A stretch of 32,000 bases of DNA from Candidatus Saccharimonadota bacterium. GTDB lineage: Archaea; Nanohalarchaeota; Nanosalinia; Nanosalinales; Nanosalinaceae. Within the stretch, counting starts at the first letter, position 1. Every line of letters starts with the position of its first letter. Shown one piece after another: positions 1 through 32,000 of this stretch. The stretch lies in NCBI GenBank assembly GCA_001761425.1, contig CP012986.1:780001-812000 (forward strand). Reading direction: 5' to 3'. The position numbers and the translations under genes were made by a program. The notes under the pieces were generated by a model. It ran no database searches. It had not been told where the DNA came from and was given only the letters and a program-made list of their open reading frames with translations.

Positions 1-1872
1 GTTGTCGAATATTTCTCCACGGCTCATTCCTGTATGGAGTTTTAGTTTCTCAACGATCTCTGTGGATTCTCTCTCCTTGTTGATCTCGTCTTCTTCCGAG
101 TCCCAAGCGTAGATGACGTTGGCTCCAAGCTCCGTCTCTCCTCCTCGTTTGTAACCTGATTTGGTGACTTCTGCTACCTGGAATACTCTTCTGAAGTTTC
201 TTCTGCGTTCACGGAACATGACCACGTTAACGTCTACTGATTTAACCATCTGCTCCGCTACATCGATAGGCGGATTTAAAAGACGCTGAACTGTCTGTTC
301 TGCTGTATCAGCGTGGATTGTGGAGTATACTGAGTGTCCTGTGTGCATCGCCTCGAAGAGGACTTCTGCCTGGCGCTTTTTACGGATCTCTCCGACCAGG
401 ATACGGTCAGGACGCATACGAAGCGAGTTAACAAGCAGATCAAGCATCGAAATCTCTCCTTTACCTTCAGGGTTTGCCTCTCTCGTCGTAAGAGGCACCC
501 AGTGAAGGAACTCCGGAAGCTGTACTTCTCTTGTATCCTCGATGGATATGATCCTCTGACTGGGAGGAATGAAAGGCATCAAGATGTTCAGAAGGCTTGT
601 CTTACCAGCTCCTGTACCTCCTGATACAAGTACTGAAAGCTCGTACTGCAGACAGAGCCAGAGGAACGCAGCGACTTCTTTGTTAATAGTACCGTTTTTG
701 ATAAAATCTATGACTGTCCACGGATCACGGGCGAACTTACGGATCGTGATAGTGTTACCGTGGGTAGAAATCGGCTGAATGGTGGAGTTAACACGATCTC
801 CACTGGGAAGATGTGCGTCCAGAAGCGGATCCAGGGAGGAAATGTTTTTACCGACACGACGGGCAATTTCCGACGAGTAATTGTAGATCTCTTCTTCGTT
901 CTCAAAAGTAAGGTTTGACTTCAGCCAGCCGTGCTCCTGGTGATAGACCCACGTCGGCTCATCCGCAGAGTTGATAACAAGTTCCTCAAGCCTGGGATCA
1001 TTCAAAAGGATCTCGACATCACCAAGCCCGACCATGTCATGAATCAAATTCCCGATAAGAATCTCCTTCGCACGCTCATCGGAATCAGGCAAAAGATCAT
1101 CCAACTGCTTCTCAACCTCCTCACTGAACTTTCTCTTAACAGTCTCAATCTCATCAGAATCCGTAAACTCCTCTCTCGTCAACTCCACATTCTCAATAAC
1201 ACGCTTCCTAATATTATCCACAAAGGCCTCCGTACCCAGACTGATCTGAGGCCTGTTAATAAAGTAAATCGGGACGTACTCATCGTCCTTATCTCCAATC
1301 ATGATTTTAGCTGGAACCTGATCCGCATCAACCTTGTAACTCTGATTTACCTCATCCAGAGTGCTTTCCCCGTACTCGACCTCCTCATGGTCTTCTTCAG
1401 GGATATCCTCATGATCATCCTCGACCTCGATCTCGTTCTTACCGCCTTCAATCTCAACCTCCTCAGGAATATCTTCCCCCTCAAGGCCTTCTTCCTCTTC
1501 ATCTTCTGAGGCCTCTTCGTCTTCTTCAGTTCCCTCTGACATCGAACCTGTTTCTATTATAGATGAACCCGAACCTTCATCGGAGCCTTCCTCATCCTCT
1601 TCATCTTCGTCCTCATAGTCCTCTGACTCAACGAGCTGGAAATCATCTCCAGAACCATCTCCAGAATCATCTCCGGAGTTTTCTCCATCAGATTCCTGGA
1701 TTTCATCGTCTTCAGAGGCCTGTTCTATCGCTGCCAGGTTCTTCTCGATCTCGTCCTCTATGTCCATGGAACCATCTTCTGAGGCCTCTTTTTCACCGCC
1801 TGAAGCTCCCTGATCCTCTGCTTGTTCGTCCATCATACCGCTTTCTATCAGAGAATCGTCTTCTTCACTCAT
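1..1872 (-). CDS. Type II/IV secretion-family ATPase (FlaI/PilB/GspE/VirB11-like) with ~190-aa acidic N-terminal extension; C-terminus lies beyond the window edge
   Basis: Absent from the ORF track because no stop lies in the window. I translated the minus strand by hand: the frame is open from ATG 1872..1870 to position 1, and the next upstream in-frame triplet is a stop. Walker A is VLVSGGTGAGKTSLLN (about 598-640). Walker B-like DRILVGEIR and His box HTGHSVYSTIHA lie at about 310-420. The ATG overlaps the upstream gene's stop by 8 nt (ATGAGTGA). Confidence 0.85.
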   Translation of the reverse strand, partial: MSEEDDSLIESGMMDEQAEDQGASGGEKEASEDGSMDIEDEIEKNLAAIEQASEDDEIQESDGENSGDDSGDGSGDDFQLVESEDYEDEDEEDEEGSDEGSGSSIIETGSMSEGTEEDEEASEDEEEEGLEGEDIPEEVEIEGGKNEIEVEDDHEDIPEEDHEEVEYGESTLDEVNQSYKVDADQVPAKIMIGDKDDEYVPIYFINRPQISLGTEAFVDNIRKRVIENVELTREEFTDSDEIETVKRKFSEEVEKQLDDLLPDSDERAKEILIGNLIHDMVGLGDVEILLNDPRLEELVINSADEPTWVYHQEHGWLKSNLTFENEEEIYNYSSEIARRVGKNISSLDPLLDAHLPSGDRVNSTIQPISTHGNTITIRKFARDPWTVIDFIKNGTINKEVAAFLWLCLQYELSVLVSGGTGAGKTSLLNILMPFIPPSQRIISIEDTREVQLPEFLHWVPLTTREANPEGKGEISMLDLLVNSLRMRPDRILVGEIRKKRQAEVLFEAMHTGHSVYSTIHADTAEQTVQRLLNPPIDVAEQMVKSVDVNVVMFRERRRNFRRVFQVAEVTKSGYKRGGETELGANVIYAWDSEEDEINKERESTEIVEKLKLHTGMSRGEIFDN

Positions 1873-3352
1873 CGTCTATCTTACCTCTGAGAAACTCTTT
1901 CATAGTTTTACGGTCCTTGTGGCTTTCCTCGAACTCGAGCAAGGCCTTGTAATCCGGGTCCTCAAGTTCCTCGATCCTGAACTCCGCAGCTTTCTCTATA
2001 TTATCGTTCAAGATCTCTCCATAATCTCTATCACCGCTTTCTTCGCCAAGATTTTTCTCTGAGGCCTGGGTATCTTCGTTTTTTTCCTCAGTACTTTCTT
2101 CTTTTTCTGTGCTTTCGTCTTCTTTCCCTTCAGTATCTTCTACACTTCCTCTCCCACTGTCAGAGTCTTTATCAGAATTTTTTTCGTGCATCGAACCGCT
2201 CTCGATTATGGAGGAACCGTGATCCTGCGAATCATTTTTTCCAGAGCTTTCCTGTTCGGAACCGGCTTCCGAGGCCTCTTCGCTGTTATTTTCTTCGTCC
2301 ATGGATGGACTTTCGATTGTACTGGAGCCTGGGGATTCTTCTGAGGCCTCCTCACTCTCCGTTGAATCTTTATCTGGGGCTTTATCCGGGGGATTCTCCT
2401 CCATTACCTCCTGTACTTTATCCTGTTTTGAGGTTTTTTCACTGCTTTTTTCTTTGTCTGGGGTTTCCTGTGTGTTTTCCGCCCCGTGTTTTTTGTCTGT
2501 ATTTTGTTCTTCTGTCTCCTGTTCAGGCCTTTCCTCTTTTTCCTGGGTTTCTTCCTCTTTGCTTTCTTTTTCTTCTTTTGAGCCTGTGAGTGGGTTGGGC
2601 GGTAATTTAAACGGTATTTTTGAGGTGATTTTTCCAAATCTGGTTTTTTCCTCGTTTTTTTCGTCTTGTTTTTTCTCTTTTTCTTTTTCTCTAAGTTCCT
2701 TTTTTTTCTCCTGTATTTTTTTGTCTTCTATTTTCTCTATTTTGTCGTGGAGGTTTTGGAAGGCCTTTACTTTTTTTCTGACCTGTTGTTCTTCGTGTTC
2801 GAAGTCTATTTCCTGTTCTGCTTCGTCGACTTCTTCCATGACTTCGTCGATTTCTTCGAGAAGCTGGAATGTGTCCTGTGTGACCTGATCGTTTTCTAGG
2901 TCTTCTATATGTTTTTCCAGTCTTTTTTCCAGGCTGTGAAGCTGGCTAATCCTTTCTTTTATCGAGTTGTATTTTTCTTCCTGGGCTTCCATATCCATCG
3001 CGGTTTTCTGTAGCTCGTCTCTGAGTTTTGATACGCTCTGGCTTTTCTCTCTTGCGTGGTCCTCAATTTTCTGTGTTTTGTCCTCTATATTGCTGTGAAG
3101 TTGCTGTCTCCTGTCTTTCATTTCTTCGACATGTTCTTCGTCGTATATCAGGACTAGGCCAGATCTTACAGTGTAGTCTTTGTCTATAAGGCCTTCTTGT
3201 TCGAGTGCATCTGCCCATTCTTTGACTCTGTCTTGTTTGACACCTATTTCCTGGGATATCTCTGATACTGAGGCCTTCTGGTTCTCTGCGAGGTAGTTTA
3301 GAACGGTGTCTACTCCTGTTTCGATGATAAGGTTTTGCCAGTTATCTGACAT
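1865..3352 (-). CDS. Winged-helix (TrmB/MarR-like) N-terminal domain protein with coiled-coil, K/E-rich linker and long D/E/S-rich disordered tail
   Basis: 495-aa ORF with an ATG start. The N-terminal ~70 aa (VDTVLNYLAENQKASVSEISQEIGVKQDRVKEWADALEQEGLIDKDYTVRSGLVLIY) has a helix-turn-helix-wing pattern. A heptad-like region (~80-200) follows, then low complexity. It is translationally coupled to the downstream ATPase. Confidence 0.7.
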   Translation of the reverse strand: MSDNWQNLIIETGVDTVLNYLAENQKASVSEISQEIGVKQDRVKEWADALEQEGLIDKDYTVRSGLVLIYDEEHVEEMKDRRQQLHSNIEDKTQKIEDHAREKSQSVSKLRDELQKTAMDMEAQEEKYNSIKERISQLHSLEKRLEKHIEDLENDQVTQDTFQLLEEIDEVMEEVDEAEQEIDFEHEEQQVRKKVKAFQNLHDKIEKIEDKKIQEKKKELREKEKEKKQDEKNEEKTRFGKITSKIPFKLPPNPLTGSKEEKESKEEETQEKEERPEQETEEQNTDKKHGAENTQETPDKEKSSEKTSKQDKVQEVMEENPPDKAPDKDSTESEEASEESPGSSTIESPSMDEENNSEEASEAGSEQESSGKNDSQDHGSSIIESGSMHEKNSDKDSDSGRGSVEDTEGKEDESTEKEESTEEKNEDTQASEKNLGEESGDRDYGEILNDNIEKAAEFRIEELEDPDYKALLEFEESHKDRKTMKEFLRGKIDDE

Positions 3353-3395
3353 TTAGACAGTATAGTTTTAACTAGGACTGGTTTTAAAGACTATT
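3353..3395. promoter_or_regulatory. Divergent promoter region with two TATA-like elements
   Basis: TATAGTTTTA (3361-3370) lies ~30 nt upstream of ATG 3396. TTTTAAAG (3382-3389; CTTTAAAA on the minus strand) lies ~33 nt upstream of ATG 3352. The spacing fits leaderless archaeal transcripts. Confidence 0.4.
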
Positions 3396-4205
3396 ATGTA
3401 CCTCGTTCTGTCCCATGTACTGGCGTTCTGTGCCCTGTGCATCAGTTCGTTTTATGACGTGTTCTCCGAGAAAGGAGATGTACCGGATCTTCCAGCTTTC
3501 GTAGCGATAGGAGCAGGAATCATACTTCACGCTATCTATGCGTTCCAGGCCTGGAGTGTAGAGCCTTTTCTCTGGATGATAGGGACAGGCCTTGCCTTTT
3601 CTGCTTATGGCTGGATGGCTTACTGGAAAGGCCTGTGGGGTGGAGCGGATGCCATGGGAGTGACAGTCCTTGGTTTTGCAGCGCCTTATGCGGTTTCAGG
3701 GCCTGGGTTGATCTATCCTGTTAACTTGTTTGTAAATATAATGATTGTAGGCCTTGTCTATACTGTAGGATTCGCTTTTTACAGAGCTGTCCGGTCTGAA
3801 GGTTTCTTCGAACGTACGAGGGATAGAATACTGGAGGATAAAAGGAGAATTCCTGTTGAGGTTGTGGCCGCAGGCCTTTTCTCGTTGTATGCAGGAACCG
3901 TGGATTTGAACCCTTATCTGTATTTTTTGGCTTTGGTCTTCATAATCTTTCTCTACAGATTTCTCAAGGTCCTGGAGGATTCGGAGATGACTAAAACAGT
4001 TTCTGTGGAGGATCTGGAGGGAGGAGAGGTTGTTGCTGAACAGGGAGATATCATTGAAGGTATTTCAGAGGAAGAGATTGAGGAGCTGGAAGTGGAGAAG
4101 GTAGAGGTACAGGAAGGTATCCGTTTTATGCCAGTGTTCCCTGTAGCCTTGTTGATGACAGATGTTTTCGGGGCTGGAGTCTTCCTCCTGTTACAGATAT
4201 TCTAG
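3396..4205 (+). CDS. Peptidase A24 family prepilin/preflagellin peptidase (FlaK/PibD-like) with archaeal C-terminal domain
   Basis: Polytopic membrane protein. The first catalytic Asp sits in SSFYDVFS (D21) and the second in WGGADAMG (D85, GxGD-type motif). An acidic cytosolic insert and a terminal TM segment resemble the archaeal A24 C-terminal domain. Confidence 0.75.
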   Translation: MYLVLSHVLAFCALCISSFYDVFSEKGDVPDLPAFVAIGAGIILHAIYAFQAWSVEPFLWMIGTGLAFSAYGWMAYWKGLWGGADAMGVTVLGFAAPYAVSGPGLIYPVNLFVNIMIVGLVYTVGFAFYRAVRSEGFFERTRDRILEDKRRIPVEVVAAGLFSLYAGTVDLNPYLYFLALVFIIFLYRFLKVLEDSEMTKTVSVEDLEGGEVVAEQGDIIEGISEEEIEELEVEKVEVQEGIRFMPVFPVALLMTDVFGAGVFLLLQIF

Positions 4206-4774
4206 TACGGTTTTGGAAAAAATGTTTTCAGCTTTGAAACAGGCTCGTCGATATACTGGAGTTTTTCGAACCAGAGTATCCAGAGGGCCAGTACGAGGCC
4301 TGTAAGACTCCATTTCCATAATGTATCATGGATTATCTGGAAGGAAATGATTCCTGTGTGGCTTAGATAGATAGTTGTCACTATCCGTACGATATTGGCC
4401 AGGAATAACAGGGCTGTACCTGCGAAGATGTATTTCAGGTTTTTCCTGTATTTTTCTGTTGATGCGAAGACAAGAGCAGTGAACGCCGTCATGGATTTCC
4501 AGCCCAGGCAGTCCTGGGTGATAATATAATGGACGCCGTCCGTGACCACTTTTATCCCTGAAACGGTGAATGAGGCTTTCATCAGCGGATCAACTATAAC
4601 TGCTACGATCTGGGCGAGAAATGCCTGTGCAGAGGTAGTATCTGGATAGATGAAAAGTATAGCTTGGAAGATCAGGCCTGCGAACAGGAGTTTGAAGGTA
4701 AATTTGAGGCCTTCGAACAGTTTTTTCTGTTGTTTGTTCATTTCTTTCCTGTCAAAGGCCTTTTCCGGGTTCAT
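4202..4774 (-). CDS. Exosortase/archaeosortase family protein (small ArtE-like form)
   Basis: 190-aa multi-TM protein carrying the family triad in the right order: Cys in ITQDCLGWKS, Arg in LANIVRIV (ANxxRI), His in QIIHDTLWKW. Its ATG overlaps the DUF460 stop by 4 nt (ATGA at 4771-4774). Confidence 0.6.
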   Translation of the reverse strand: MNPEKAFDRKEMNKQQKKLFEGLKFTFKLLFAGLIFQAILFIYPDTTSAQAFLAQIVAVIVDPLMKASFTVSGIKVVTDGVHYIITQDCLGWKSMTAFTALVFASTEKYRKNLKYIFAGTALLFLANIVRIVTTIYLSHTGIISFQIIHDTLWKWSLTGLVLALWILWFEKLQYIDEPVSKLKTFFPKPY

Positions 4775-5802
4775 CGTGATTCTTTGTATTCTTCGATGAT
4801 TTCTTCGAAGTTTTCCGCTGTGTCGGGGAAGTCTTCAGCGATGTAGTGGTCTTTTAGCTCTATGCCTTTGATCTCCTCTATTTTGTGGATGTTGAATCCT
4901 CTTTTTCTCAGTCTTTCCTTTATCTCGTCTGATCTGGTTACGGATCTTTCAGGGACTTCTTCGCTTCTGCCGTTTATGATAGGGATGATTTCTGCGCCGT
5001 CTTTGAGTTTTGAAATGGCTTTTTTGTACTGTTTTTCTCTTATCTCTGCGTTTTTCAGTTCTTCTTCGAGTTCCTGTATTTCACTGTTTTTCTCATTTAT
5101 TATGCCTTCTCTCTTGCTTATCTCCTGGTCCTTAACTATTTTATCTCTCTTGCCTTCTTTCAGGTCTTCGTATTTACTTCTTAACTGTTTTTTACCCTGT
5201 TTTTCCTCGCCTAGCTCTGATTTCAGGGCCTTTACCTGGTCTTCAAGGTTTCTGACTTTTGTTCTGAGTCTCTCTTTTTCCCGGTCTTTTTCTGCCTGAG
5301 AGGCCTTGTTGTTTTCCTGGGTAATATCGGTGTTTTCTTCTTCTTTTTCGGTTTTTTCAGGTTTCAGGGGCCTGTCTGAGAAGTATCTTTTTGCTATTTC
5401 AGGCCTTTCGGTTTCAAGTCTGTCGTTGTATTTTTCTATCTTTCTTATCTCGCGTTGAAGGTTTTTGTATGCGTGTACTGCGGATGCTACTGCGTCTTTC
5501 TCGTGAGAATTGGATCCTTTGCCTAGCTGTTTTTTTCTCTGTGAGTCAAGATCTTGGTCTGGTTCGAAAATTTTTGCTCCGAGCGATGTTCTGATGTCTT
5601 CTACTGTGGAAGGCGTCTTCCCTTTGTCGGAGGCGATTACGACAGGTTTTCCGACTTTGACTATTCTTTCTATGATTTCGCTGGGTGGGAAGTTTTTTCC
5701 GCTTTCCAGTAGCTGTATTTTTCCGTCGAGGTCGAGTGCTGCGACTGCGGATGTGCTTCCGGGGTCTATTCCGATTATCAGGGCTTTTTTTGGTTTATTC
5801 AT
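4771..5802 (-). CDS. DUF460 / COG2433 protein (RNase H-fold putative nuclease) with C-terminal coiled-coil
   Basis: ALIIGIDPGSTSAVAALDLDGK...VVIASDKGKTPSTVE is typical of archaeal DUF460. I prefer ATG 5802 (MNKPKK...), which overlaps the hef stop by 8 nt (ATGAATAA), over the track start at 5880, which would overlap hef by 86 nt. Confidence 0.7.
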   Translation of the reverse strand: MNKPKKALIIGIDPGSTSAVAALDLDGKIQLLESGKNFPPSEIIERIVKVGKPVVIASDKGKTPSTVEDIRTSLGAKIFEPDQDLDSQRKKQLGKGSNSHEKDAVASAVHAYKNLQREIRKIEKYNDRLETERPEIAKRYFSDRPLKPEKTEKEEENTDITQENNKASQAEKDREKERLRTKVRNLEDQVKALKSELGEEKQGKKQLRSKYEDLKEGKRDKIVKDQEISKREGIINEKNSEIQELEEELKNAEIREKQYKKAISKLKDGAEIIPIINGRSEEVPERSVTRSDEIKERLRKRGFNIHKIEEIKGIELKDHYIAEDFPDTAENFEEIIEEYKESR

Positions 5803-8023
5803 ACTTTTTTTCTGCGAGTTCCCGTATTGAACGTGCTTTTTTGTCGCCGATGCCTTCCACTTCTTTGAGCTCTTCTTCATTAGCTGTGAGTACTTTTTGG
5901 ATTGTTCCGAACTCTTTCAGGAGTCTTCTCGCTATCTTTGTGTTGACGTCTGGGAGGCCTGCGACGACGAATTCCTGGAGTTCTTTCTCCGTTTTCGGGC
6001 TTTTTCCTCCTCTTACTGCTACTTCTTTCTCGTTTTCTTCCTGTTCTCTTTTAGCTAGGCTTTCGAGGAGTTCGGCTGTTCCTTTGATTTCGTTGCTCCA
6101 GAGTATGCTTACGCTGTGATCGATGGCGATGGATGCGAGGGCGCCTCTTATGGCGTTGGGATGTATGTCTCTATGCGAGTACAGGTCTTTTCCCTCTATG
6201 ATGAGGACCGGGTTCTCGAACTGGTGGAGGCTCTGGATCTGGTCGAATACTCTGTTGTCGATTATAGAGTCTACGAAATCCTTTGCTTCTTTCCTCTCGA
6301 TCGCTGTTCTCTCTGATACCAGGAAGTCTGCGACGTCAAGACGTTTTTTCTTTACGATGGCGTCCATGCGGGAGAGTTCTTTCGAGACCTTGTTCTCACG
6401 GTCATCGGCGTAGACCACAAGTTCCTCTTCTTCTGTAGGATCAGCAATTTTTTCATCCTCTTCTTCGCTTTCTTCTGAGGCCTTCTCATCGTCGAATCCG
6501 TCAGCTAGTGTTTTCTGACCGTTTTTATCTTCTTTCTCTTTTTCAGCTGCCATTTCCGAGGTTTCTCCCTTGAGTTCATTTAGTACTTTCTTCATTTTCT
6601 TCTTTTTGTGGTGTGCACTCCAGTAGTATCCTTCGTCACGAGTGTTTTCCGCGATCAAGACAATGACTTTACCGCTTTCCTGACGGCCTGTACGCCCAGC
6701 TCGCTGGATATCACGGATTCCTGAAGGCACAGGTTCGTAGAAAACGACGTAGTCTACAGCGGGGATGTCGAGGCCTTCTTCACCGATGCTTGTAGAAACT
6801 AAAACATCGTATTTGCCGTCTTCGAAGGCCTGAAGTACTTTTGCCTGTTTGTTCTGTGTCATTCCGTCGTCTCCCTGCTGGCCTATGAATTTGACTGCGT
6901 TATGGCCCTGGGTGTTAAGTTCTTTGACTATTGCGTCGCATGAGGAGCGGTACTCGGTGAAGATCATTGCTTTTTCGTTTTCTTCTTTTTTGCCGATTAT
7001 TTTCCGTAGTTTATCGATTTTTGGGTGTTCTTCTCCTTTTTTCTTCAGGTGTTCGGTCATTCCGCGGGCTTTGGAGAATTTGTCGTGGTCTACAGCTCTC
7101 TTGGCTGCTTTCGAGTCATCGTTTTCGAGGCCTCTCATGTAGTTGTAGGCCTGGCTTACTCCCTGGGTTTCCAGAAGTTCCAGGGCCTGGGAAATTTTTA
7201 ATGCGGTTGCGACCCTGCTTATGGCTGAGTAAAGTTTTGGGTCATCTGAGTTTGATAGTTTGGAGCCGAGTTCTCCTCTCAGGTTCAGCAGGTCTGTTTT
7301 CTGCACGTTGTTCAGGGAGTTTATCTGATCCAGTCTTTTCAGTTCTTTGAGCTGTTCTCTTTTTGCGTCTTCCAGATGGTTTTTTGCGGTTTTGAATCTG
7401 TCGTCCAGTGAGACGTATTTCCAGTCCACTTCTTTATCCTGTATGTATGGTTCGACATCAGGGTCGTCTTCGGTTCTGACCTCGAAGTTATTGATCTCCA
7501 GGTTGTTTGCGACCTCCATGATTTTTTCCTTGTCGCCGCCTGGTGAAGCTGTCAGGGCCAGTTTCTGATTGTTCATTTTTTCACTGATGAAGACATAGCT
7601 GTATTCTCCTGTGGCTCTGTGGGCCTCGTCGAAGATGGTTAATGCGAAGTCCTGTACAGGTATTTCTCCTGCGATTATATCGTTTTCCACGACTTGAGGT
7701 GTTCCGAAAAAGATTTTTTTCTCTCTCCAGAGTTCGTATCTTTTGTCAGGCCTTGTATCTCCTGTCATCACCTGCATATCTTCTTTGTCGACGTTCAGCA
7801 GTCCGTTGAATTCTTCGAGGTGTTGTTCGACCAGCGGTTTCGTAGGTGCCATGAAGAGGACTTTGCCGTTTTTCAGTTTCTGGGATGCGACCATCGCTGC
7901 TATAACTGTTTTTCCAAGGCCTGTGGGCAGGACTACCAGTGTGTTCTTGTTTGATGCTGATGCTGCGATGACTTCCTGGTAGGCTCTGGATTCCAGTACA
8001 TCGGTTTTGAGAAGCTGTGTCAC
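5795..8023 (-). CDS. hef: Hef helicase-nuclease (SF2 helicase + ERCC4/XPF nuclease + HhH2), FANCM/XPF family
   Basis: Motif I LPTGLGKT, motif II FDEAH, motif VI QRAGRTGR. The C-terminal ERCC4 region is VYADDRE...DVADFLVSERTAIERKEAKDF, with a terminal HhH (GIGDKKARSIRE). The first codon is GTG at 8023..8021. Confidence 0.9.
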   Translation of the reverse strand: MTQLLKTDVLESRAYQEVIAASASNKNTLVVLPTGLGKTVIAAMVASQKLKNGKVLFMAPTKPLVEQHLEEFNGLLNVDKEDMQVMTGDTRPDKRYELWREKKIFFGTPQVVENDIIAGEIPVQDFALTIFDEAHRATGEYSYVFISEKMNNQKLALTASPGGDKEKIMEVANNLEINNFEVRTEDDPDVEPYIQDKEVDWKYVSLDDRFKTAKNHLEDAKREQLKELKRLDQINSLNNVQKTDLLNLRGELGSKLSNSDDPKLYSAISRVATALKISQALELLETQGVSQAYNYMRGLENDDSKAAKRAVDHDKFSKARGMTEHLKKKGEEHPKIDKLRKIIGKKEENEKAMIFTEYRSSCDAIVKELNTQGHNAVKFIGQQGDDGMTQNKQAKVLQAFEDGKYDVLVSTSIGEEGLDIPAVDYVVFYEPVPSGIRDIQRAGRTGRQESGKVIVLIAENTRDEGYYWSAHHKKKKMKKVLNELKGETSEMAAEKEKEDKNGQKTLADGFDDEKASEESEEEDEKIADPTEEEELVVYADDRENKVSKELSRMDAIVKKKRLDVADFLVSERTAIERKEAKDFVDSIIDNRVFDQIQSLHQFENPVLIIEGKDLYSHRDIHPNAIRGALASIAIDHSVSILWSNEIKGTAELLESLAKREQEENEKEVAVRGGKSPKTEKELQEFVVAGLPDVNTKIARRLLKEFGTIQKVLTANEEELKEVEGIGDKKARSIRELAEKKYE

Positions 8024-8043
8024 AGAAAATTTACAGGGTTGAA

Positions 8044-8054
8044 ATTTGATAAAC
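8044..8054 (-). promoter_or_regulatory. TATA-like element upstream of hef
   Basis: The minus strand reads GTTTATCAAAT, centred ~26 nt upstream of the hef start codon. Confidence 0.35.
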
Positions 8055-8092
8055 TGACTGGGGAGAGGCCTTTCAGCGTTTGGATCTGTTTT

Positions 8093-8620: not shown

Positions 8621-8690
8621 ATTCTGAGGCCTCTATCACTAGTTAAATAGAAATTGGTTGATAAATTCCCTGTTCAGAGGCCTTTTCTTT

Positions 8691-9953: not shown

Positions 9954-9975
9954 AAAGATTCAAGTGCAAGGCCTG

Positions 9976-9986
9976 AATATAAAAAC
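9976..9986 (-). promoter_or_regulatory. TATA-like element upstream of the HerA-like ATPase gene
   Basis: The minus strand reads GTTTTTATATT, centred ~28 nt upstream of ATG 9953. Confidence 0.4.
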
Positions 9987-10004
9987 TGGTCAAAAAATGG
10001 GTCT

Positions 10005-10613: not shown

Positions 10614-10650
10614 CAAATAAGAATTAAGGCCTCTGGTTTAAAGAACTATT

Positions 10651-11142: not shown

Positions 11143-11187
11143 AAGAAACAATATGCCGCTACATCAATAAAAAATAATCCCTCACCT

Positions 11188-12870: not shown

Positions 12871-12894
12871 ATAACAAAGGCCTTGAATTGGAAA

Positions 12895-20182: not shown

Positions 20183-20287
20183 CCGGCCATATTTTGGGTT
20201 ATATGGCGCTATATCAGTTGTTTAGTGTTGAGGTTTTTGTACCTTTGGAGGTAATGTAGGTTGTTTATAAGGATAGTTAGAAAGAGG

Positions 20288-20548: not shown

Positions 20549-20550
20549 CT

Positions 20551-21543: not shown

Positions 21544-21554
21544 GATATTTCACT

Positions 21555-25257: not shown

Positions 25258-25260
25258 TCT

Positions 25261-26193
25261 TTATTCCAGTTCTAAAGATTCTATGTCGATTTTGTCACTT
25301 TCTAGAGAAGGTTCTTCGGAGAACTCAGTGTATACAGCTTCTATCTTATCCGAATGCTTCTCTAACTCCTTCCTCAGCTCGGATAGATCAAGCTCCAAAT
25401 CACTGAACTTCCTGATCTCCTTATCCTTCTTCTCCGATTTCTTCTCGACTTTGTGATCTAGGCCTCCAATGTGGTAGTTATCTTCATTGTACTCTACGAT
25501 GATCAGTGCTTGTGGCTTGTGCGCCATTTTGGAATGAGTAATAAGAGACTTTGTTCCGTTCCATAATCCGTCGGCCAGCGTATGTACATCTTCTCGAGTA
25601 AGTTCTGTGTGTTCTGCTGCGTTTTCATTCACCAGGCCGTAGAATTTAATCAGAGAGTACGGAAGATCGTAGCGGTCTGCAAATGTTCCCTGCTCCTGAT
25701 CGCCATCGGAAGGGATTGACACAGATTGCTGGATATATCTTCTGTCAACTTTATGCATTGACCTCCCCATCTTAAACTGTGTCGGCCCTGTAAGTGCGAA
25801 AGAACGTTTTTTCACGCTGATAGTGGCTCCGAATAGTCTGATATCAACGAACTTGGATATCAACTCATCTCGGATATCTGATTTTGAAGGCTCATTCTTT
25901 GTGATCTTCTGATCTATCGCCTTCTCCACCATCTCCTTTCTGCTTCTAAGCTTACCATCTTCTTTCTCGGAGGCCTTTACAAAAATATTATGTCCTTGAC
26001 TGTCGAGATAATCTCTTACTGTTCGTTTCAGGCGTACATCCGTTACTATGTTCTCTTCCGTAGTGTCGTCTATTCGTGGCCTGTTCTCTTCGAGAGGGTC
26101 TCCGTTAGGGTTTCCTTCCTCCACGTCGTAGAGGAAGATGATTTCGAATCTGTTGTCGATTTGCGAGTCGTCGTCTTCTTTGAGTTCTGTCAT
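25261..26193 (-). CDS. cas7: Cas7 (Csh2/Cst2-type, type I-B)
   Basis: FLYDVEEGNPNGDP...VTDVRLKRTVRDYL is the characteristic Cas7 I-B N-terminal motif. Confidence 0.88.
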   Translation of the reverse strand: MTELKEDDDSQIDNRFEIIFLYDVEEGNPNGDPLEENRPRIDDTTEENIVTDVRLKRTVRDYLDSQGHNIFVKASEKEDGKLRSRKEMVEKAIDQKITKNEPSKSDIRDELISKFVDIRLFGATISVKKRSFALTGPTQFKMGRSMHKVDRRYIQQSVSIPSDGDQEQGTFADRYDLPYSLIKFYGLVNENAAEHTELTREDVHTLADGLWNGTKSLITHSKMAHKPQALIIVEYNEDNYHIGGLDHKVEKKSEKKDKEIRKFSDLELDLSELRKELEKHSDKIEAVYTEFSEEPSLESDKIDIESLELE

Positions 26194-28061
26194 TAGTTGT
26201 CACCTTCTGTAGAGTTGTTCTTGAAAACCTGGTTTAAGCTCATACCAAGAGTGAAGAAGTAGCTGATATCGTCATCTGAGATCTGCCAGCTATCCTCCTC
26301 AGCTAGGAGAAGATAATGGGCCACAGTTTCTCTGAGACCTGTATAAGAAACGTTCTTTTCCGTTTTGCTGTCGTAGATCTCTAAAGTCCTTGAGGCTTCC
26401 GTGAATATGTATTCAAGTTTCTCCTTATCGAGTCGGAGATTGGCCAGTTTCTTCCGGAAAGGTGCTTTTTTAGTACCTGAATCATCTGAGTCGCTGTATC
26501 TCTGCCTCCATTGAACCTGCATCAGATTCTGTGCGAGCACGCCCTCAAGGAAAGCTGCTTTTTTAGCAGGAGAATCAAATGAGTTCGAATGTTCATCAAA
26601 GAATTTTTTGATGTTTTCGTCTTCTTCTGTTTCGAGGTCTTCCATAATTTGGTTGAAGTCTTTCATAGTACTATTTTCGTCAAGTAAATCGTTTTTCCTA
26701 AGGAATTCTAGGAAAAAGAATGATTTGATCATATAATGAGGGTAATTTTTCTCATCAGGGTTTCTGAATCTAGACATGCCTTCATCAACAAAGATACTGA
26801 CTAAATCTTCCCTTTTAACTTTATCTCCTTTTAGAATCTTTGAGGTTAGATCCATGGCCTTGTTGAAGAAGTCTTTAGGCTCATTTTTCTCAGGATTGGG
26901 CCTAGGCAACACGTTCAAGATCAAAGAGTCTAATTCCCTAGGAACTGTGTAATCTCCTTTAAAATGAGGATTAAATTCATCAGATAATCTGTCAATACTA
27001 TCTTCTAAATCACTGATGTGTGAAGGTGCAACATCCTTGATTTCTTTTTTGATTTTCTCGGAGTTTTGTTTTGTCTTGAAGAATATGAATTCAAGATTTA
27101 CAGGGGCTTCAAGATCATCAACATTTCTGTAAAATCTTTCAGCCTCTAAGAGGCTTCCCTCAGTACTTTCTGTATCTTGACCGACCAAGTCTAGAAAATT
27201 GTCGCTTACTTCTCCCAAGAATTCTGGGATTACATAATACTGTACATTATCTCCTACATAGTAACTGAAATCTTGCTCCTTCACAAACAGACTTCCCATA
27301 GCTATCCTCTCAGAGCAATTCTCACAGACCGGTAAGTTTTTCCAGGAATCTGACCTTTCGAAAGATGGTGCATACCGTGCATTATCAATTGTGTAAAATT
27401 TGAAGGGGAATGAATAACCGTAAACCTTCTTCCTCTCCCTGCAAACAGCGCATAATTCATCCTCCGAGCTACTCTCACCGTGAGTGGTTGTATAGTGCCA
27501 GCTCTCTTTCACGTTTTTCTTTAGAGCTTTCTTCAATTGTCCAATCTCAACCGGAAACTTGAGTTCGCCATTCTCCCTATAAACTACCGACAGCACATGA
27601 TTAGGCCCTTTATCTAGAACATTTCTTTTCTCAGCAACATGTCCCTTAATCTCTTCTTCATTATCTAGATATTCTTCCCTAGTATTCGCAATTAAGTCGA
27701 ACTCATCACGATCGTCACAGAAGCCATAACCAAACAGTCTATTAGGTCTTCCTTCGTAATGACTTTTGGTATTCTGAGTAATCTTTGTTGAAGGACCCCA
27801 ATCACCGCCTCTAGAAGTCCCCTTCTTATACAAAACATCAATTTCATTACCTTTCAAGTCCATTCTGATAACATCATTGAATTCTAAACTATCGCCTTCT
27901 TTATCAAAAACTACTGCAACGATACTCGAACTTTCCTCACTTTCATCATCTCGGACTTGATCCTCAACCCATCTTTTTAGCTGATAAGTATCTGTAAAAG
28001 CCTCAATATTCTCTCTTTCGGAGTCTAAATAATCGCCAAGCATTTTCAACTGTTGCAGCAT
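26193..28061 (-). CDS. cas8b: Cas8b (type I-B large subunit)
   Basis: 622 aa, positioned between cas6 and cas7, with Cys pairs CAVCRE and CENCSE. The call rests on position and size plus weak resemblance to Csh1-type proteins. Confidence 0.7.
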   Translation of the reverse strand: MLQQLKMLGDYLDSERENIEAFTDTYQLKRWVEDQVRDDESEESSSIVAVVFDKEGDSLEFNDVIRMDLKGNEIDVLYKKGTSRGGDWGPSTKITQNTKSHYEGRPNRLFGYGFCDDRDEFDLIANTREEYLDNEEEIKGHVAEKRNVLDKGPNHVLSVVYRENGELKFPVEIGQLKKALKKNVKESWHYTTTHGESSSEDELCAVCRERKKVYGYSFPFKFYTIDNARYAPSFERSDSWKNLPVCENCSERIAMGSLFVKEQDFSYYVGDNVQYYVIPEFLGEVSDNFLDLVGQDTESTEGSLLEAERFYRNVDDLEAPVNLEFIFFKTKQNSEKIKKEIKDVAPSHISDLEDSIDRLSDEFNPHFKGDYTVPRELDSLILNVLPRPNPEKNEPKDFFNKAMDLTSKILKGDKVKREDLVSIFVDEGMSRFRNPDEKNYPHYMIKSFFFLEFLRKNDLLDENSTMKDFNQIMEDLETEEDENIKKFFDEHSNSFDSPAKKAAFLEGVLAQNLMQVQWRQRYSDSDDSGTKKAPFRKKLANLRLDKEKLEYIFTEASRTLEIYDSKTEKNVSYTGLRETVAHYLLLAEEDSWQISDDDISYFFTLGMSLNQVFKNNSTEGDN

Positions 28062-28063
28062 TT

Positions 28064-28801
28064 TTAGTCGTTCACCTTGTTCATGAATCCGAATCCTGTG
28101 GCGTTTAGTTCTCCGAGGCCTGAGTCGTAGGCCATCTGGATCAATCGGTACATCTCTCTGTTATGGCATTCGTATTCGAGCTCCCATGTCGTGCCGACTA
28201 CGGTATCTGTTCCTTCCGCGTATTTCAACGGTACTGCTACTTCTTTCCGCGGGGTGTAACCTGTGAAGTAAGGTCTATCCGGTGGCTCACGGTTGTAGTA
28301 TGTCTCATATTTGTGCGCAAGGTTTTCCTCTATCCTGTCAATAAAGGCCTGTGAATCATGTTTCATCTTCCAGTAGATCTGCTGATGGTTGCCTTCAATA
28401 CCGTACTCGGCGGCTTTCTCTTTCGCTATCCTGACAACTATCGGTGTGCCTGTAATCATCTTTCCCTTTTCTCCAGGATCTACTGAAATCTTGGAAGTAT
28501 CTTTTATCGAGTACTGCTGTTCCCCAAACTCCAGCCTATCATTCTTTTCAGAAACTTCTGCAAACTTCTCCACAATCTTCCTATTGCTGCTGGCCAAGAT
28601 AAAAGTCCGATTATCCCCCTGTTTAATGTCTTCGGGAGGGAAAACATTTGAGAAACTGAAAAACTTGAAAGGCCTGTTATCATGCACGTCCTCTAATCCT
28701 GCCTCCTCAAGTTTTCTATAGACTGCTCCCTGTAGGTCAACGTGATAGGACGGATTATAGGCCTGGTCTTTTAGAGAACTAAGTTTTAGTAGAACTCTCA
28801 T
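28064..28801 (-). CDS. cas6: Cas6 CRISPR repeat endoribonuclease
   Basis: 245 aa with the C-terminal glycine-rich loop GLGELNATGFGFM. It is the first gene of the cas operon. Confidence 0.85.
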   Translation of the reverse strand: MRVLLKLSSLKDQAYNPSYHVDLQGAVYRKLEEAGLEDVHDNRPFKFFSFSNVFPPEDIKQGDNRTFILASSNRKIVEKFAEVSEKNDRLEFGEQQYSIKDTSKISVDPGEKGKMITGTPIVVRIAKEKAAEYGIEGNHQQIYWKMKHDSQAFIDRIEENLAHKYETYYNREPPDRPYFTGYTPRKEVAVPLKYAEGTDTVVGTTWELEYECHNREMYRLIQMAYDSGLGELNATGFGFMNKVND

Positions 28802-28823
28802 GGAAATGGTGTGAATTCTGTCT

Positions 28824-28830
28824 CTTTTAT
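28824..28830 (-). promoter_or_regulatory. TATA-like element upstream of cas6
   Basis: The minus strand reads ATAAAAG, centred ~26 nt upstream of ATG 28801. Confidence 0.35.
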
Positions 28831-28894
28831 CTCTGTTGGCTAGAGAAATAAAAACGCAGAATAACAGGATTGGAAAGTTTAAGGCCTTTTTGTT

Positions 28895-29041
28895 TTATTC
28901 TTGGCTTTCGAGTTCTTTTTTCTTTTGTTGTTTGCGGTCTGGTTGTTCTTCGAAGATTTCTTTGGCTCTGTCGTCGCTTATGCCGAGCATTTCTTTGGCC
29001 TTTTGTTTCTGTTCTTCTGCTGCGTCCTTGTTCGGTCCCAT
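28895..29041 (-). CDS. Small K/E-rich hypothetical protein (48 aa) immediately upstream of cas6
   Basis: Hand translation: MGPNKDAAEEQKQKAKEMLGISDDRAKEIFEEQPDRKQQKKKELESQE. It falls below the ORF-track size cut-off. A TTAAAAAAAG element (29062-29071, minus strand) lies ~26 nt upstream of the ATG. A T5 run on the minus strand (about 28850-28854) follows the stop. Confidence 0.35.
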   Translation of the reverse strand: MGPNKDAAEEQKQKAKEMLGISDDRAKEIFEEQPDRKQQKKKELESQE

Positions 29042-29162
29042 GTATGTTACTATAGGTCTTTCTTTTTTTAACGATTTGTTTCTGGGAGGCCTGGATTAGA
29101 GGAAAGAGGTTGGAAAAAGGCGATGAGGGAAATGAAAGAGTATGAGGTTGAAGGGCCTTTTT

Positions 29163-30266
29163 TTATTCGACGAGTTGTGTGAAGTTTTCTTTGAATTTTT
29201 TGTAGTGTTTGAGTTTCATGGAGGCGCCGGCTGCTTTGCGGTGTCCTCCTGCTTCTGCGCCTTCTTTTTTTGCTTCCTGGGGTAAGGCCTTTTGAAGTAG
29301 GTTTCCGAGGTCTGCTCTTCCTGATTGGCAGCGGGCTGAGATGTTGATTTTTTCGTCTTTCTGGATGACCAGGTGGATCCAGTCCGGTGTTTTTGTGGAC
29401 ATGTTGGTGGCTATGCTACTTGTGATGTGGAAGTCGCTGTCGAGTTCGAAGAAGATGATTCTTTTTTCTCTGTTGATTTCTCTGTCTTCTTCGTAGTCTT
29501 CCATCATTTTGTTGAACTCGTCCTGCATTTCGAGGTAGACTTCGTAGACCTGTCTGTAGGCTTCCTGTGCCTCGAGTTCTTTTAGGTCTTTTGAGTTCAT
29601 CAGGGCTTCGTATGCAAGCTGTGCGAAGTGTTTTGAGTCTCTGTAAGGCTTGATGTTCAGTACTGAGGAGTATCTGCCGTATTCACAGTTTTTCGCAAGC
29701 TGATGCTGGTTAAGATCTTCAGGCAGGTATTTTTCGTATTTGTCCTCCAGTTCTTCGAAGAGTTCAGGACATGAATCGACTCCGAAGTCCTGTATGACTC
29801 CGAGGCCTGCTATCCACCGCAGTTGTTCATGGAGACCGAAGTGATCTGCTATATCCAGGCAGATCTTCGAACATGGTACGTAGACATCTGCGTTCTCCTC
29901 TCTGGGATTGACAAAAGGGATGTTATCTGGTACTCTTCCAAAGCTGTGATGATCTACCACCAGGATTTCAAGGTCGTACTCTTCTCTGAGGCCTTCAAGC
30001 TCATCTGCTTTCAGGTTAAAGTCAAGCACCACGAGGATATCCTTCTGCTCCAGCTTCTCTCTATCAGCTTCTTCGAGATGGTAAGCTCTTTCCTCAGGGA
30101 TCGTTACGAGATCTGCTTCCCGTCCTCTCTCTTTTTCAAGTATCTTTGAGATGATCACGGCACTTGAAGTCCCGTCCATATCCCAGTGATGGATGATTTC
30201 GACTTGGTCTTGCTCCGAAACATTCCGGAGAAAATCTAGTGCAGGGTCTAAGTTTTCCTGTTCCAT
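29163..30266 (-). CDS. DHH/DHHA1 family phosphoesterase (NrnA/RecJ-like)
   Basis: Motifs HHWDMDGTSS, VVLDFN, VVDHHS (DHH) and GGHRKAAGA (DHHA1). Confidence 0.85.
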   Translation of the reverse strand: MEQENLDPALDFLRNVSEQDQVEIIHHWDMDGTSSAVIISKILEKERGREADLVTIPEERAYHLEEADREKLEQKDILVVLDFNLKADELEGLREEYDLEILVVDHHSFGRVPDNIPFVNPREENADVYVPCSKICLDIADHFGLHEQLRWIAGLGVIQDFGVDSCPELFEELEDKYEKYLPEDLNQHQLAKNCEYGRYSSVLNIKPYRDSKHFAQLAYEALMNSKDLKELEAQEAYRQVYEVYLEMQDEFNKMMEDYEEDREINREKRIIFFELDSDFHITSSIATNMSTKTPDWIHLVIQKDEKINISARCQSGRADLGNLLQKALPQEAKKEGAEAGGHRKAAGASMKLKHYKKFKENFTQLVE

Positions 30267-30324
30267 ACATAATCACGGTTCAGCGAATGTTTTTAACCGA
30301 CCGGTCTCAAAGAAAAAGACCTGT

Positions 30325-32000
30325 CTAGGCCTTCGGCTCTGAGAACCGGAAAATGGTTTTGAACTCTCTGAACTCGACCTCGCCTCCGTATTCAAGGTCT
30401 TCACCGCTGAAACCAACTGACTCAACGTTCACCCTGCTCTCGATCATATCCGAATACTTCTCCAGGACATCGGACTCGCCTTCAAACGAAAGCCCAACGC
30501 TGTCCTCTACTTCAAGGCCTTCATCCTTCCTCTTTTGCTGGATGGCACGGATAACCTCCGCTACAAAGGCCTCTTCCTCGATCTTCTCAGTCATGATCAA
30601 GTCAAGGTACAGGTTGCCTCTGGAGAACTCGAGCTGGCTGACTCCTTCCGTTGTCTCCTGCCTGATCTCGACATCATCTTCTGTGACATCGTAGCCGTCG
30701 ATCTCGATCTCTCCAAGCTCCTGGAGCTGTTTCACCTGGTCTGTGTCAAGCTCCTCGATCAGATCAGCGACTTTCTCCGCATCACCGCCGAACTTGGGGC
30801 CAAGCTCCGGATAACTCGGCTCCGCTACAGGCTTCGAGGCTACTTCACCGTACTCAACGGATTTGACGTTCGCCATATCTTCGATCAACGGTTTAAAGGC
30901 CTCAAGCTCATCCTCAAGGCCTTCAGCAGATACAATCAGTCTCTGGGCCGGCCAGCGAAGGTTGTACTCTTCTTTGTCTCTGATCTTGTTCGCTTTCTCG
31001 ACTATTTCTCTGGCTATCTCCATCTTTTCCTCAAGGCCTTCGTCCATCATTTCTTCATCTGGTTCAGGGTATGGTTCCATGTGTACTGATTCTTCCTGGC
31101 CCTGGATATCGTGATAGACCTTTTCCGTTACGAAAGGTGCGAAAGGCGCGAGCAAAAAGTTCACACGCTCGATAACCGAGGCCAGAGTCCATTTCGCTGC
31201 CTCGTCGCCGTTCTTGACTCTTTCACGGACCTTCTTGATATACCAGCGAGAGATATCCTCCAGTATGAAATCCTCGATATCCCTCGTTATCTCATGGAAA
31301 AAGGCCTCATCCATTTTCTCCGGTGCTTCCGCGTTCAGAGAGTTGGCCTTGGAGAGTATCCACCTGTCCTCTACCTCAAGTTTTTCAGGCCTCTCCACTT
31401 CTCCTTCAAGATAGGTATCAAGGAACTCTTTAGTGTTCCAGTACACTGAGAAGAGCCTGTAAATCTCATTTTCTATCTCGTCTTCATCATAGTTCTTCTG
31501 CTCCCACGCAGGCGCAAGACGAAGCTGGTAGAACCTTGGAAGATCCGCACCGAACTTCTCGACCTGTTCAGCCGGATCCACAACGTTTCCAAGCGACTTG
31601 GACATCTTCTCGCCTTCCGCATCAAGAACGTAGCCCTGGAACAGTACTTTCTCGTAAGGAGCCTCGTCGAACCCAAGGATTCCTGTAAACATGAGCGAGT
31701 AGAACCATCCCCGGATCTGATCTGAAGCTTCAGTAATGAAGTCCATCGGCCACATGTCCTCGAACGGTTTTTCTTCAAACGGGTAATGCAGGGAAGCGAA
31801 CGGAGCGATACCCGAGTCAAACCAGACATCGAAGATATCTGGAATTCTTTCATATTCTCCGCCGCAGCCACATTCCCAGGAAATATCATCCACGACGTGT
31901 TTGTGAGGGTCGAACTCTTCTGGTAACTCTCCGATTTTTTCCTCAAGCTGTTCGAAGCTCCCGATTATCTCCTTTTCGCCACACTCATCACAGATCCAGA
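30325..32000 (-). CDS. ileS: Isoleucine--tRNA ligase, C-terminal ~558 codons; N-terminus lies beyond the window edge
   Basis: KMSKS loop GEKMSKSLGNVV. The frame stays open upstream of the track start (a GTG at 31893) to the window edge, reading WICDECGEKEIIGSFEQLEEKIGELPEEFDPHKHVVDDISWECGCGG (Zn-binding Cys pairs). An anticodon-binding and C-terminal region follows. Confidence 0.9.
   Translation of the reverse strand, partial: WICDECGEKEIIGSFEQLEEKIGELPEEFDPHKHVVDDISWECGCGGEYERIPDIFDVWFDSGIAPFASLHYPFEEKPFEDMWPMDFITEASDQIRGWFYSLMFTGILGFDEAPYEKVLFQGYVLDAEGEKMSKSLGNVVDPAEQVEKFGADLPRFYQLRLAPAWEQKNYDEDEIENEIYRLFSVYWNTKEFLDTYLEGEVERPEKLEVEDRWILSKANSLNAEAPEKMDEAFFHEITRDIEDFILEDISRWYIKKVRERVKNGDEAAKWTLASVIERVNFLLAPFAPFVTEKVYHDIQGQEESVHMEPYPEPDEEMMDEGLEEKMEIAREIVEKANKIRDKEEYNLRWPAQRLIVSAEGLEDELEAFKPLIEDMANVKSVEYGEVASKPVAEPSYPELGPKFGGDAEKVADLIEELDTDQVKQLQELGEIEIDGYDVTEDDVEIRQETTEGVSQLEFSRGNLYLDLIMTEKIEEEAFVAEVIRAIQQKRKDEGLEVEDSVGLSFEGESDVLEKYSDMIESRVNVESVGFSGEDLEYGGEVEFREFKTIFRFSEPKA

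Follow-up and report, generated by a model that had tools for sequence, protein, structure and literature searches.

Genes of the window and abundance of AGGCCT

The DNA analyzed here is a stretch of 32,000 nucleotides (the window) which matches Candidatus Nanopetramus SG9, a DPANN nanohaloarchaeon of Atacama halite referred to below as SG9 (GenBank assembly GCA_001761425.1, contig CP012986.1, positions 780,001 to 812,000 of the forward strand), and the element under study is the palindromic hexamer AGGCCT. The window carries housekeeping genes for cysteinyl-tRNA synthetase (CysRS), isoleucyl-tRNA synthetase (IleRS), Hef, a HerA-like ATPase, NUDIX hydrolases, and a FlaI-type ATPase, together with a type I-B CRISPR-Cas block (Table 1). 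Homologues of its CysRS bear the names Nanohaloarchaea or Nanohalobium. Chromosome outside this block is called native, and the window with its 16 kb of flanks gave 48 kb of SG9 sequence in total. In the published description of SG9 the CRISPR locus is of type I and has 22 spacers, and the low-G+C CRISPR region is ascribed to horizontal transfer; AGGCCT is not mentioned there. Within this DNA AGGCCT behaves as a highly iterated palindrome (HIP), that is, as a HIP-like element of some nanohaloarchaeal lineages maintained by a lineage-specific pressure which acts at the DNA level and on the whole hexamer.

An earlier note on this DNA, made from the sequence alone, had put AGGCCT at about 118 copies in 32 kb where composition predicts about 6, and had placed about 60% of the GGCC tetramers in an A....T flank. 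Our recount gave exactly 118, the highest count of all 4096 hexamers and above the T-rich words expected from composition, and 118 of the 197 GGCC tetramers (60%) carry the flank. Expected numbers were 5.9 from base composition (order 0) and 7.0 from dinucleotides (order 1), while 100 dinucleotide-preserving shuffles produced 7.03 ± 2.62 copies with a maximum of 13. The observed/expected ratio (O/E) was 17-22, with z = 50 across the 48 kb of SG9. No other palindromic hexamer exceeded about 3.7-fold in the window, the next palindromes lying at 3-4-fold.

Shuffling synonymous codons within native genes, which holds every protein sequence and the codon usage of each gene constant, left 14.5 ± 3.3 sites (maximum 25) compared with 80 observed (z = 20). 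This null is conservative because codon usage already contains the signal. Markov models returned an O/E of 2.1 at order 3 and 1.15 at order 4, but these nulls are circular since the counts of AGGC, GGCC, GCCT, AGGCC, and GGCCT come mostly from the hexamer itself, and they were replaced by the codon shuffles and by phylogenetic controls. Relatives of the same G+C and gene content have 0.1-0.4 sites per kb, whereas SG9 native DNA has 4.5 per kb. The earlier note had named a recount far below about 100 copies, or an O/E near 1 once sequence bias was modeled, as results that would speak against it; apart from the circular order-4 value, neither was found. Density was uneven, with 1.6 sites per kb in the CRISPR-Cas block (18.6-28.8 kb) and none in the conserved ATPase domain at 1-1200, and high density restarted at 28802 and continued for 8 kb past the window end. 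At the native density there would be about one site per 200 bp, or about 5000 per 1.1-Mb genome.

Table 1. Coordinates of the AGGCCT field and of other features of the window.
Feature	Position	Strand	Remarks
AGGCCT field	1-32000		118 sites; count and shuffles
Native chromosome block	1-18600		89 sites, mean spacing ~197 bp
FlaI/VirB11-type secretion ATPase gene	1-1872	-	PF00437 T2SSE; runs off window start
495-aa protein	1865-3352	-	between FlaI-type ATPase and prepilin-peptidase-like gene
HerA-like ATPase (DUF87), two small proteins, weak Hjc-type nuclease match	8093-11151	-	adjoins Hef
Intergenic spacer	8621-8690		two sites (8627, 8678)
Archaeal signal recognition particle (SRP) RNA	12603-12874	-	one site, 12711-12716, in conserved segment
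tRNA-Cys(GCA)	14401-14525	+	54-nt intron 14437-14490; site 14436-14441 across exon/intron junction
Cysteinyl-tRNA synthetase gene	17138-18592	+	6 sites (17413, 17934, 18136, 18394, 18442, 18532)
CRISPR array	18668-20182		23 repeats
Type I-B cas operon	20288-28801	-	cas2, cas1, cas4, cas3, cas5, cas7, cas8b, cas6; G+C ~0.40
Native block right of island	28802-32000		13 sites; DHH phosphoesterase, isoleucyl-tRNA synthetase

Distribution of AGGCCT among related genomes

Comparison loci, labeled by L-numbers (L003, L203, etc.), were drawn from two samples. For the first, about 21 kb surrounding CysRS was taken from GTDB species representatives, and in these loci AGGCCT was strongly over-represented in a minority of genomes (termed rich), with an O/E of 17 in SG9, 18 in L003, 11 in L004, 9.5 in M3_22 (complete genome, CP046106.1), 21 in Nanosalina VS9-1 (complete genome, NZ_CP180230.1), and 21.5 in NHA29. 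L007 stood at 3.4; about 25 other nanohaloarchaea (termed poor) gave 0-2.6, and non-halophilic archaea and Saccharibacteria about 1. In a neighbor-joining tree of CysRS, a single-gene tree which is indicative only, rich genomes are scattered among poor ones at no fewer than three or four positions. The second sample, 28 metagenome contigs found via the HerA-like protein, showed the same pattern; 12 contigs were rich, with up to 102 sites in 21 kb, and contigs whose HerA-like protein is 82-87% identical to that of SG9 were poor (O/E 0.4-1.7). Comparison with related genomes, which the earlier note had proposed as a check, therefore finds poor relatives with orthologous proteins and the same G+C, yet without the excess.

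Among the genes of the window, the only ones restricted to rich lineages were those of two acidic proteins (14638-15435 and 15545-15982), which were found in L003 and L007. As determinants of the excess these two proteins were judged implausible.

Some poor genomes were short of the GGCC core itself. The cultivated Nanohalobium constans (L339, CP040089.1) has no AGGCCT in 21 kb and 13 GGCC compared with 33.6 ± 5.3 expected, and NHA25 (L033) has 10 GGCC in 21.5 kb at 49% G+C and no AGGCCT in that stretch. This shortage is the pattern that would be expected for GGCC-directed restriction. Set against the excess in rich lineages, it indicates that GGCC words are under opposite pressures within the phylum.

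Other palindromes were also raised in places. The 15-kb locus of Nanohaloarchaea archaeon SW_4_43_9 (L034) contains 13 ACCGGT (1.4 expected) and 24 AACCGG (3.8 expected), and ACCGGT may be a second, weaker iterated palindrome of another nanohaloarchaeon. TCCGGA and GATATC showed a 3-6-fold excess in other loci.

Reading frames, codon contexts, and non-coding DNA

In native genes AGGCCT was read as xGL (xxA GGC CTx) at 41-45 sites, as [KEQ]A[FSLY..] at 30, and as RP at 9-10, with EAS accounting for only 3. The hexamer is accordingly present in all three frames as the earlier note had stated, although the EAS reading it listed is a minor class. Amino-acid contexts which can be encoded as AGGCCT by synonymous choice alone (RP, [KEQ]-A-[FLSYCW], and x-G-L) were designated permissive, and 85 of the 113 such contexts in window native genes (75%; 73% across the 48 kb of SG9) use the hexamer. 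Occupancy of these contexts was 54-84% in the other rich nanohaloarchaea, 24-27% in two intermediates, and 0-14% in poor genomes.

Native intergenic DNA was denser still: its 1375 bp hold 13 sites, and at 9.5 per kb this is double the density of coding DNA. The intergenic examples of the earlier note were real, as was its site across the tRNA-Cys exon-intron junction. The site it cited in the SRP RNA was also present, but the same position is AGGCCT in the poor relatives L015, L032, and L011, so this site is ancestral and offers no evidence for the bias. Sites were depleted within 40 bp of start codons and around promoters and were enriched in the 30 bp after stop codons. The FlaI-type ATPase gene, devoid of sites in its conserved part (1-1200), has 6 in its acidic N-terminal tail (1224-1787). 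Taken together, these patterns indicate that the hexamer fills DNA which is free to change. The conclusion of the earlier note that no single peptide motif is responsible, and that the process operates on DNA, agrees with the higher intergenic density, the 75% context occupancy, and the absence of excess from relatives with orthologous proteins.

The effect on protein sequence was examined in a CysRS codon alignment of 37 nanohaloarchaea and outgroups. One SG9 site results from synonymous choice alone, on a conserved EGL which poor genomes write as GAAGGACTG or similar. At least four others, which read EGL or QAF in the SG9 clade, align with ELF, SEL/AEM, QEL/EEx, or QCF/QSF in poor genomes; these sites arose through amino-acid replacements (e.g., ELF to EGL). 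Permissive tripeptides were 1.5-2 times commoner in rich genomes than in poor genomes of similar G+C (4.0-6.3 versus 2.4-4.0 per kb of open reading frame, P = 0.001), and tripeptide identity to several poor relatives was lower at SG9 sites than at control positions. The earlier note had proposed that acidic tails are rich in the hexamer as repeated EAS and that the DNA bias shapes protein there; shaping was evident in CysRS, while EAS contributes little.

With respect to flanking bases, T at -1 and A at +1 each occurred at only about 7% in the rich genomes examined (L003 was weakest, at 15%), giving an effective motif of V-AGGCCT-B. As flanks were unconserved beyond this one base, a longer hidden motif, a mobile element, or a dispersed repeat family was ruled out.

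Spacing of sites

Rich loci of many lineages were pooled, with identical intervals counted once, to give 780 adjacent intervals. Only 7 of these were shorter than 25 bp, compared with 71 expected under random placement, and the closer pairs that do occur are about as many as the unenriched background rate gives. Intervals of 25-29 bp were present at expectation (14 versus 13.5), those of exactly 25 bp numbering 7 versus 2.7 expected. Within SG9 genes, 7 of 28 unoccupied permissive contexts lay within 25 bp of a site, compared with 4 of 85 occupied ones (Fisher P = 0.005). These data indicate that the enrichment process is blind within about 25 bp of an existing site. Helical periodicity of site spacing was not significant. 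A global evenness of spacing was significant in the left block of the window (coefficient of variation 0.74) but was rejected when the 16 kb of flanks were added (1.01); it vanished because conserved genes leave long gaps, and only the short-range exclusion is robust.

Favored positions and substitution model

All nine single-base variant classes of AGGCCT occurred in native DNA at an O/E of 0.55-2.1, and the deamination-type neighbors AGGCTT, AAGCCT, AGGTCT, and AGACCT at 1.0-1.6. The outer A and T positions and the transversion neighbors were favored just as strongly. The pressure favors AGGCCT over each single-base variant by roughly 10-20-fold.

In a 4096-state hexamer substitution model, very-short-patch (Vsr-type) repair converting T:G to C:G in context reached a ceiling of 3.7-fold when acting on one cytosine and 8-fold when acting on both, and it emptied AGGCTT/AAGCCT (and AGGTCT/AGACCT), unlike what was observed. 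A bias over all 18 neighbors reproduced a 20-fold excess with neighbors at 1.0, so that favoring of the whole hexamer is required; the model works equally as a 20-fold boost of gains or as a fixation bias of scaled strength about 3. Since one-off variants stand at expected levels, Vsr-type T:G repair alone cannot be the cause, and the Vsr-like deamination-repair bias which the earlier note had offered as a candidate agent was excluded as a simple cause.

Gain, loss, and persistence of sites

L203 is 97.6% identical to SG9 over 11.4 kb (window 7138-18592), a region in which 52 sites are shared, 7 are found only in SG9, and 4 only in L203. The changed sites were of many kinds (AGCCCT, AAGCCT, GGGCCT, AGGCTT, AGGCCC, and AGGCAT), and polarization with outgroups revealed both gains and losses, including the stepwise gain AAGTAT to AAGCCT to AGGCCT. 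Site differences numbered 9 compared with 17.1 expected from position-class background divergence (ratio 0.53, P = 0.025), so over the short term sites are only mildly protected. Over longer divergence they outlast ordinary hexamers about three-fold: at 75% nucleotide identity 64-77% of sites were conserved versus 25% of ordinary hexamer windows, and at 61% identity 42-55% versus 14-18%.

At orthologous coding positions rich genomes carried AGGCCT in 26-62% of cases (with the exceptions of L217 at 12% and L218 at 18%), compared with 6-22% for control hexamers. Most rich genomes were bimodal at these positions, having either AGGCCT or a sequence at least two changes away, and in 11 rich genomes pooled one-off states were found at 27 of 340 positions compared with 91 expected (P = 3e-15), as would follow if near-sites were strongly drawn toward full sites. 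L212 and L213, the closest poor relatives, had no one-off remnants and more multi-base differences than controls at SG9 site positions, which argues against recent neutral decay in those genomes.

CRISPR-Cas block, spacers, and mobile DNA

The type I-B cas operon contains 13 sites (1.6 per kb, O/E about 8) with 45% occupancy of permissive contexts, and the cassette is a horizontally acquired block of intermediate AGGCCT density. Two of the 22 array spacers contain the hexamer (19149 and 19319; P = 0.013), and one more site (19051) arises where a repeat meets a spacer. Between CysRS and the DHH/IleRS genes, the chromosomal slot (window 18593-28801; L203 11452-21455) holds type I-B in SG9 and type I-D in L203/L204. 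The L203 cassette, with Csc1, Csc2, a large-subunit-like 906-aa protein, Cas6, and Csa3, has 2.0 sites per kb. Most other nanohaloarchaea have the DHH and IleRS genes immediately after CysRS and nothing in the slot, which appears to be a hotspot of cassette exchange. As the flanks of the two cassettes differ by only 2.4%, at least one cassette arrived recently. On the simplest reading of the several-fold enrichment of both cassettes and of the spacers, mobile DNA circulating among these lineages would itself be partly AGGCCT-enriched.

The viruses behind the spacers were also sought. Three spacers were unmatched in IMG/VR, one was unmatched in JGI metagenomes (with a flank filter against the array itself), and no spacer matched any of the comparison loci fetched. 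Triple-site pattern matches in IMG/VR were attributed to chance, and two apparently rich matches were rejected, L189 being a eukaryote-like 73-bp tandem repeat and L239 a virus whose QGLQG repeats are collagen-like. In the JGI assembly (L001, same genome) the array exceeds that of the window by two repeat-spacer units, one with a second copy of spacer 6 and one with a spacer absent from the window (TTATTCCGGGTTTTCGGCCTTGACAGCTCTCAGCTCG).

Other features of the window

The 495-aa protein begins with a winged-helix-like segment, continues as a coiled coil, and ends in a long acidic tail rich in Ser and Glu; it gave no Pfam match and had no homologue among the other loci examined. Synteny of the HerA-like cluster is kept across rich and poor nanohaloarchaea, and its two small proteins have no assigned function. 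Lying beside Hef, this HerA-like/Hjc-like cluster is probably a DNA repair or resection module. The tRNA-Cys intron is absent from L203, and in seven other nanohaloarchaea the syntenic tRNA has no intron and measures 71 nt; from this comparison the intron looks like a very recent gain.

Discussion

The pressure described here acts on genes in all frames and on the DNA between them, is opposed only by protein constraint, and is on or off among close relatives. Palindromes of HIP type have been known in cyanobacteria for about thirty years, with no accepted mechanism. The earlier note had named HIP1 (GCGATCGC) as the closest analogue, and the comparison holds. Like HIP1 and the alternate HIPs, AGGCCT is a short G+C-rich palindrome, an extreme outlier in O/E which is grossly over-represented genome-wide, in genes and spacers alike. 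Its distribution among relatives is sporadic, as with the cyanobacterial elements, and the hexamer likewise coincides with a recognition sequence of restriction-modification type. The finding is best filed as an archaeal variant of the HIP phenomenon, and no mention of an AGGCCT bias in nanohaloarchaea was found in the literature searched.

There are also differences. AGGCCT occurs in archaea (DPANN), differs in sequence, and reaches about 4500 per Mb of native DNA, compared with 300-2700 per Mb for HIP1, and its one-off variants are not enriched, unlike the HIP case. The portion of Elhai (2015; PMC4390886) consulted describes the alternate HIPs GGCGCC, GCsGC, and rCCGGy, with an O/E of about 15 for hexamers, and reports that each co-occurs with a methyltransferase of matching specificity. 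In that same portion we met no counterpart to the near-saturation of codon contexts, the rewriting of amino acids, or the 25-bp exclusion seen for AGGCCT.

As to the agent, we tentatively favor a HIP-like mechanism driven by a lineage-specific protein which reads the whole palindrome, while recognizing that the cause may well prove to be another. Under this proposal a horizontally gained and lost protein would read the complete palindrome, presumably as a dimer, and would cover about 25 bp; the likeliest candidate would be a DNA methyltransferase of StuI type (AGGCCT), linked to a repair or reader activity that is guided by methylation over a short range. Sequence variants creating a site would tend to be retained and those disrupting one would tend to be eliminated, but close to a neighboring site neither tendency would apply. 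The scheme would follow the logic that Elhai put forward for HIPs in cyanobacteria, its reach being tens of bases instead of hundreds; the ratchet of that account also leads to saturation once every position is within range of a site.

This reading is ranked first because AGGCCT is a known restriction-modification specificity, because the patchy distribution together with the opposite GGCC avoidance in relatives is typical of restriction-modification traffic, and because the alternate cyanobacterial HIPs each co-occur with a matching methyltransferase. In Alcanivorax borkumensis SK2 a StuI-type system methylates AgGCcT, and the genome has 1674 such sites (PMC12128166). Its recognition sequence is identical to the hexamer studied here, so proteins which read exactly AGGCCT do exist. 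For a genome of roughly 3.1 Mb, the density there is about 0.5 per kb. Restriction normally drives avoidance, as of GGCC in N. constans and NHA25, rather than the 20-fold excess of its site found in SG9.

Several observations weigh against the proposed methyltransferase. The 48 kb of SG9 (about 4% of the genome; Pfam tables including those of the two 10-kb flanks) yielded no methyltransferase, restriction, or Vsr-like gene, and a screen of the window, L203, and the nanohaloarchaeal CysRS loci L003-L038 for C5 and N4/N6 methyltransferase motifs was negative (about half a megabase, of which about 100 kb is from AGGCCT-rich lineages); the search for a determinant thus covered a few percent of each genome, about 4% of SG9 and about 2% of other rich genomes. 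We know of no way in which methylation alone would create sites, and any protein bound there would account just as well for the 25-bp exclusion. An equilibrium fixation bias of strength 3.3 predicts 2.2 differences between SG9 and L203 rather than the 9 seen (P = 4e-4), a turnover four times faster than predicted. Four-fold-site divergence around shared AGGCCT sites in the same pair was 7/80 at 1-6 bp, 3/162 at 7-19 bp, and 51/1029 farther away, a hint of the local reduction that methyl-directed short-patch repair would produce, but not a significant one. Since any bound protein would account for the exclusion and the effects on the proteome parallel those of uptake sequences, a binding protein and an uptake or Chi-like drive, both of which correspond to candidates listed in the earlier note, are kept as serious rivals.

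The first of these rivals, a credible possibility but on balance an unlikely one, is that an abundant DNA-binding protein with sequence specificity, architectural or self-marking, binds at AGGCCT, with a small fitness gain for each occupied site. Weak selection, of a scaled strength of about 3 and comparable to codon bias, would then fill the genome, and a second site inside a 25-bp footprint would add nothing. The sharp wall at 25 bp, with closer pairs at baseline and a possible pile-up at exactly 25 bp, is consistent with such a footprint, as are the favoring of the whole hexamer over all neighbors, the three-fold longer persistence, and the depletion at start codons and promoters with enrichment just after stop codons. 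Against it, the spacing has no helical periodicity, flank preference is limited to -1/+1, selection would have to maintain about 5000 sites individually, and short-term turnover is faster than such selection predicts.

We regard as improbable a second rival, in which AGGCCT is an uptake, recombination, or anti-degradation signal spread by molecular drive among DNA-exchanging cells, after the manner of the uptake signal sequences (USS) of Pasteurellaceae, the DNA uptake sequences (DUS) of Neisseriaceae, or Chi. Uptake sequences are known to double roughly the tripeptides that can encode them, to prefer poorly conserved genes and residues, and to be rarer in horizontally acquired genes (Findlay and Redfield). 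AGGCCT resembles them in its genome-wide, lineage-specific over-representation, its scarcity in recently transferred genes, its preference for weakly conserved positions, and an enrichment of encodable tripeptides of about two-fold. The motif-bearing spacers suggest that the local mobile gene pool shares the motif, and the intermediate density of both cassettes swapped into one slot fits the same picture. However, uptake sequences are asymmetric motifs of 9-12 bp at about 1 per kb, compared with a less specific 6-bp palindrome without conserved extension at about 5 per kb. They often stand in close inverted pairs, whereas close pairs of AGGCCT are excluded, and a sharp 25-bp limit is unexpected from redundancy at the scale of DNA fragments. 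To our knowledge neither sequence-specific DNA uptake nor a receptor gene for it is known in archaea, and neither an uptake system nor a competence receptor was identified here. Dam-directed mismatch repair at GATC and Chi are further cases in which repair or recombination machinery depends on the density of a short genome-wide motif; GATC shows no gross over-representation, Chi has an asymmetric and oriented sequence, and neither rewrites proteins on this scale.

A purely mutational bias, in which a T:G mismatch in AGGCCT context is always corrected to C:G, is very improbable. Methylation-linked repair can raise a palindrome of restriction-modification type, as with Vsr/Dcm at CCWGG in E. coli and Mig.MthI/M.MthTI at GGCC in Methanothermobacter; the GGCC core of AGGCCT is the target of the latter and a classic target of cytosine methylation, and 3 of the 9 site differences between SG9 and L203 involve C/T-type neighbors. 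The signature of such repair, a modest excess with depleted deamination neighbors, is nevertheless not that of AGGCCT, for which the excess of about 20-fold lies above the modeled ceiling, the deamination neighbors are not emptied, and the outer A/T and transversion neighbors are equally favored; nor does it give any reason for the 25-bp exclusion. Vsr-type repair is thus contradicted as sole cause, although it could contribute. That the excess simply follows from the composition of amino acids, codons, or oligonucleotides, or comes from a dispersed repeat family, as the order-4 Markov ratio and the location of most sites in genes might suggest, is scarcely credible, and composition was ruled out by the codon shuffles, by an intergenic density above that of genes, and by poor relatives with orthologous proteins and the same G+C, the high-order Markov result being circular and the flanks unconserved beyond one base.

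An independent archaeal case provides a natural comparative experiment, with another sequence, a higher density, and on/off states among close relatives that include complete genomes. Saturation of codon contexts, protein rewriting, these on/off states, and a hard 25-bp exclusion make the mechanism directly testable. The results indicate that a bias at the DNA level can measurably change the proteome of a reduced genome, and AGGCCT density offers a simple signature by which nanohaloarchaeal metagenomes can be binned and foreign DNA in them recognized. It is possible, if still doubtful, that a sequence-specific genome-marking system, horizontally mobile and of a kind not previously described, is present in some DPANN archaea. 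An AGGCCT-reading protein that excludes neighbors within 25 bp would either bring its own site close to saturation or profit from that state, and synonymous sites and variable residues would be rewritten as a consequence. If this is true, such a system could be a self/non-self or repair-directing mark in cells which are attached to, and exchange material with, a host archaeon.

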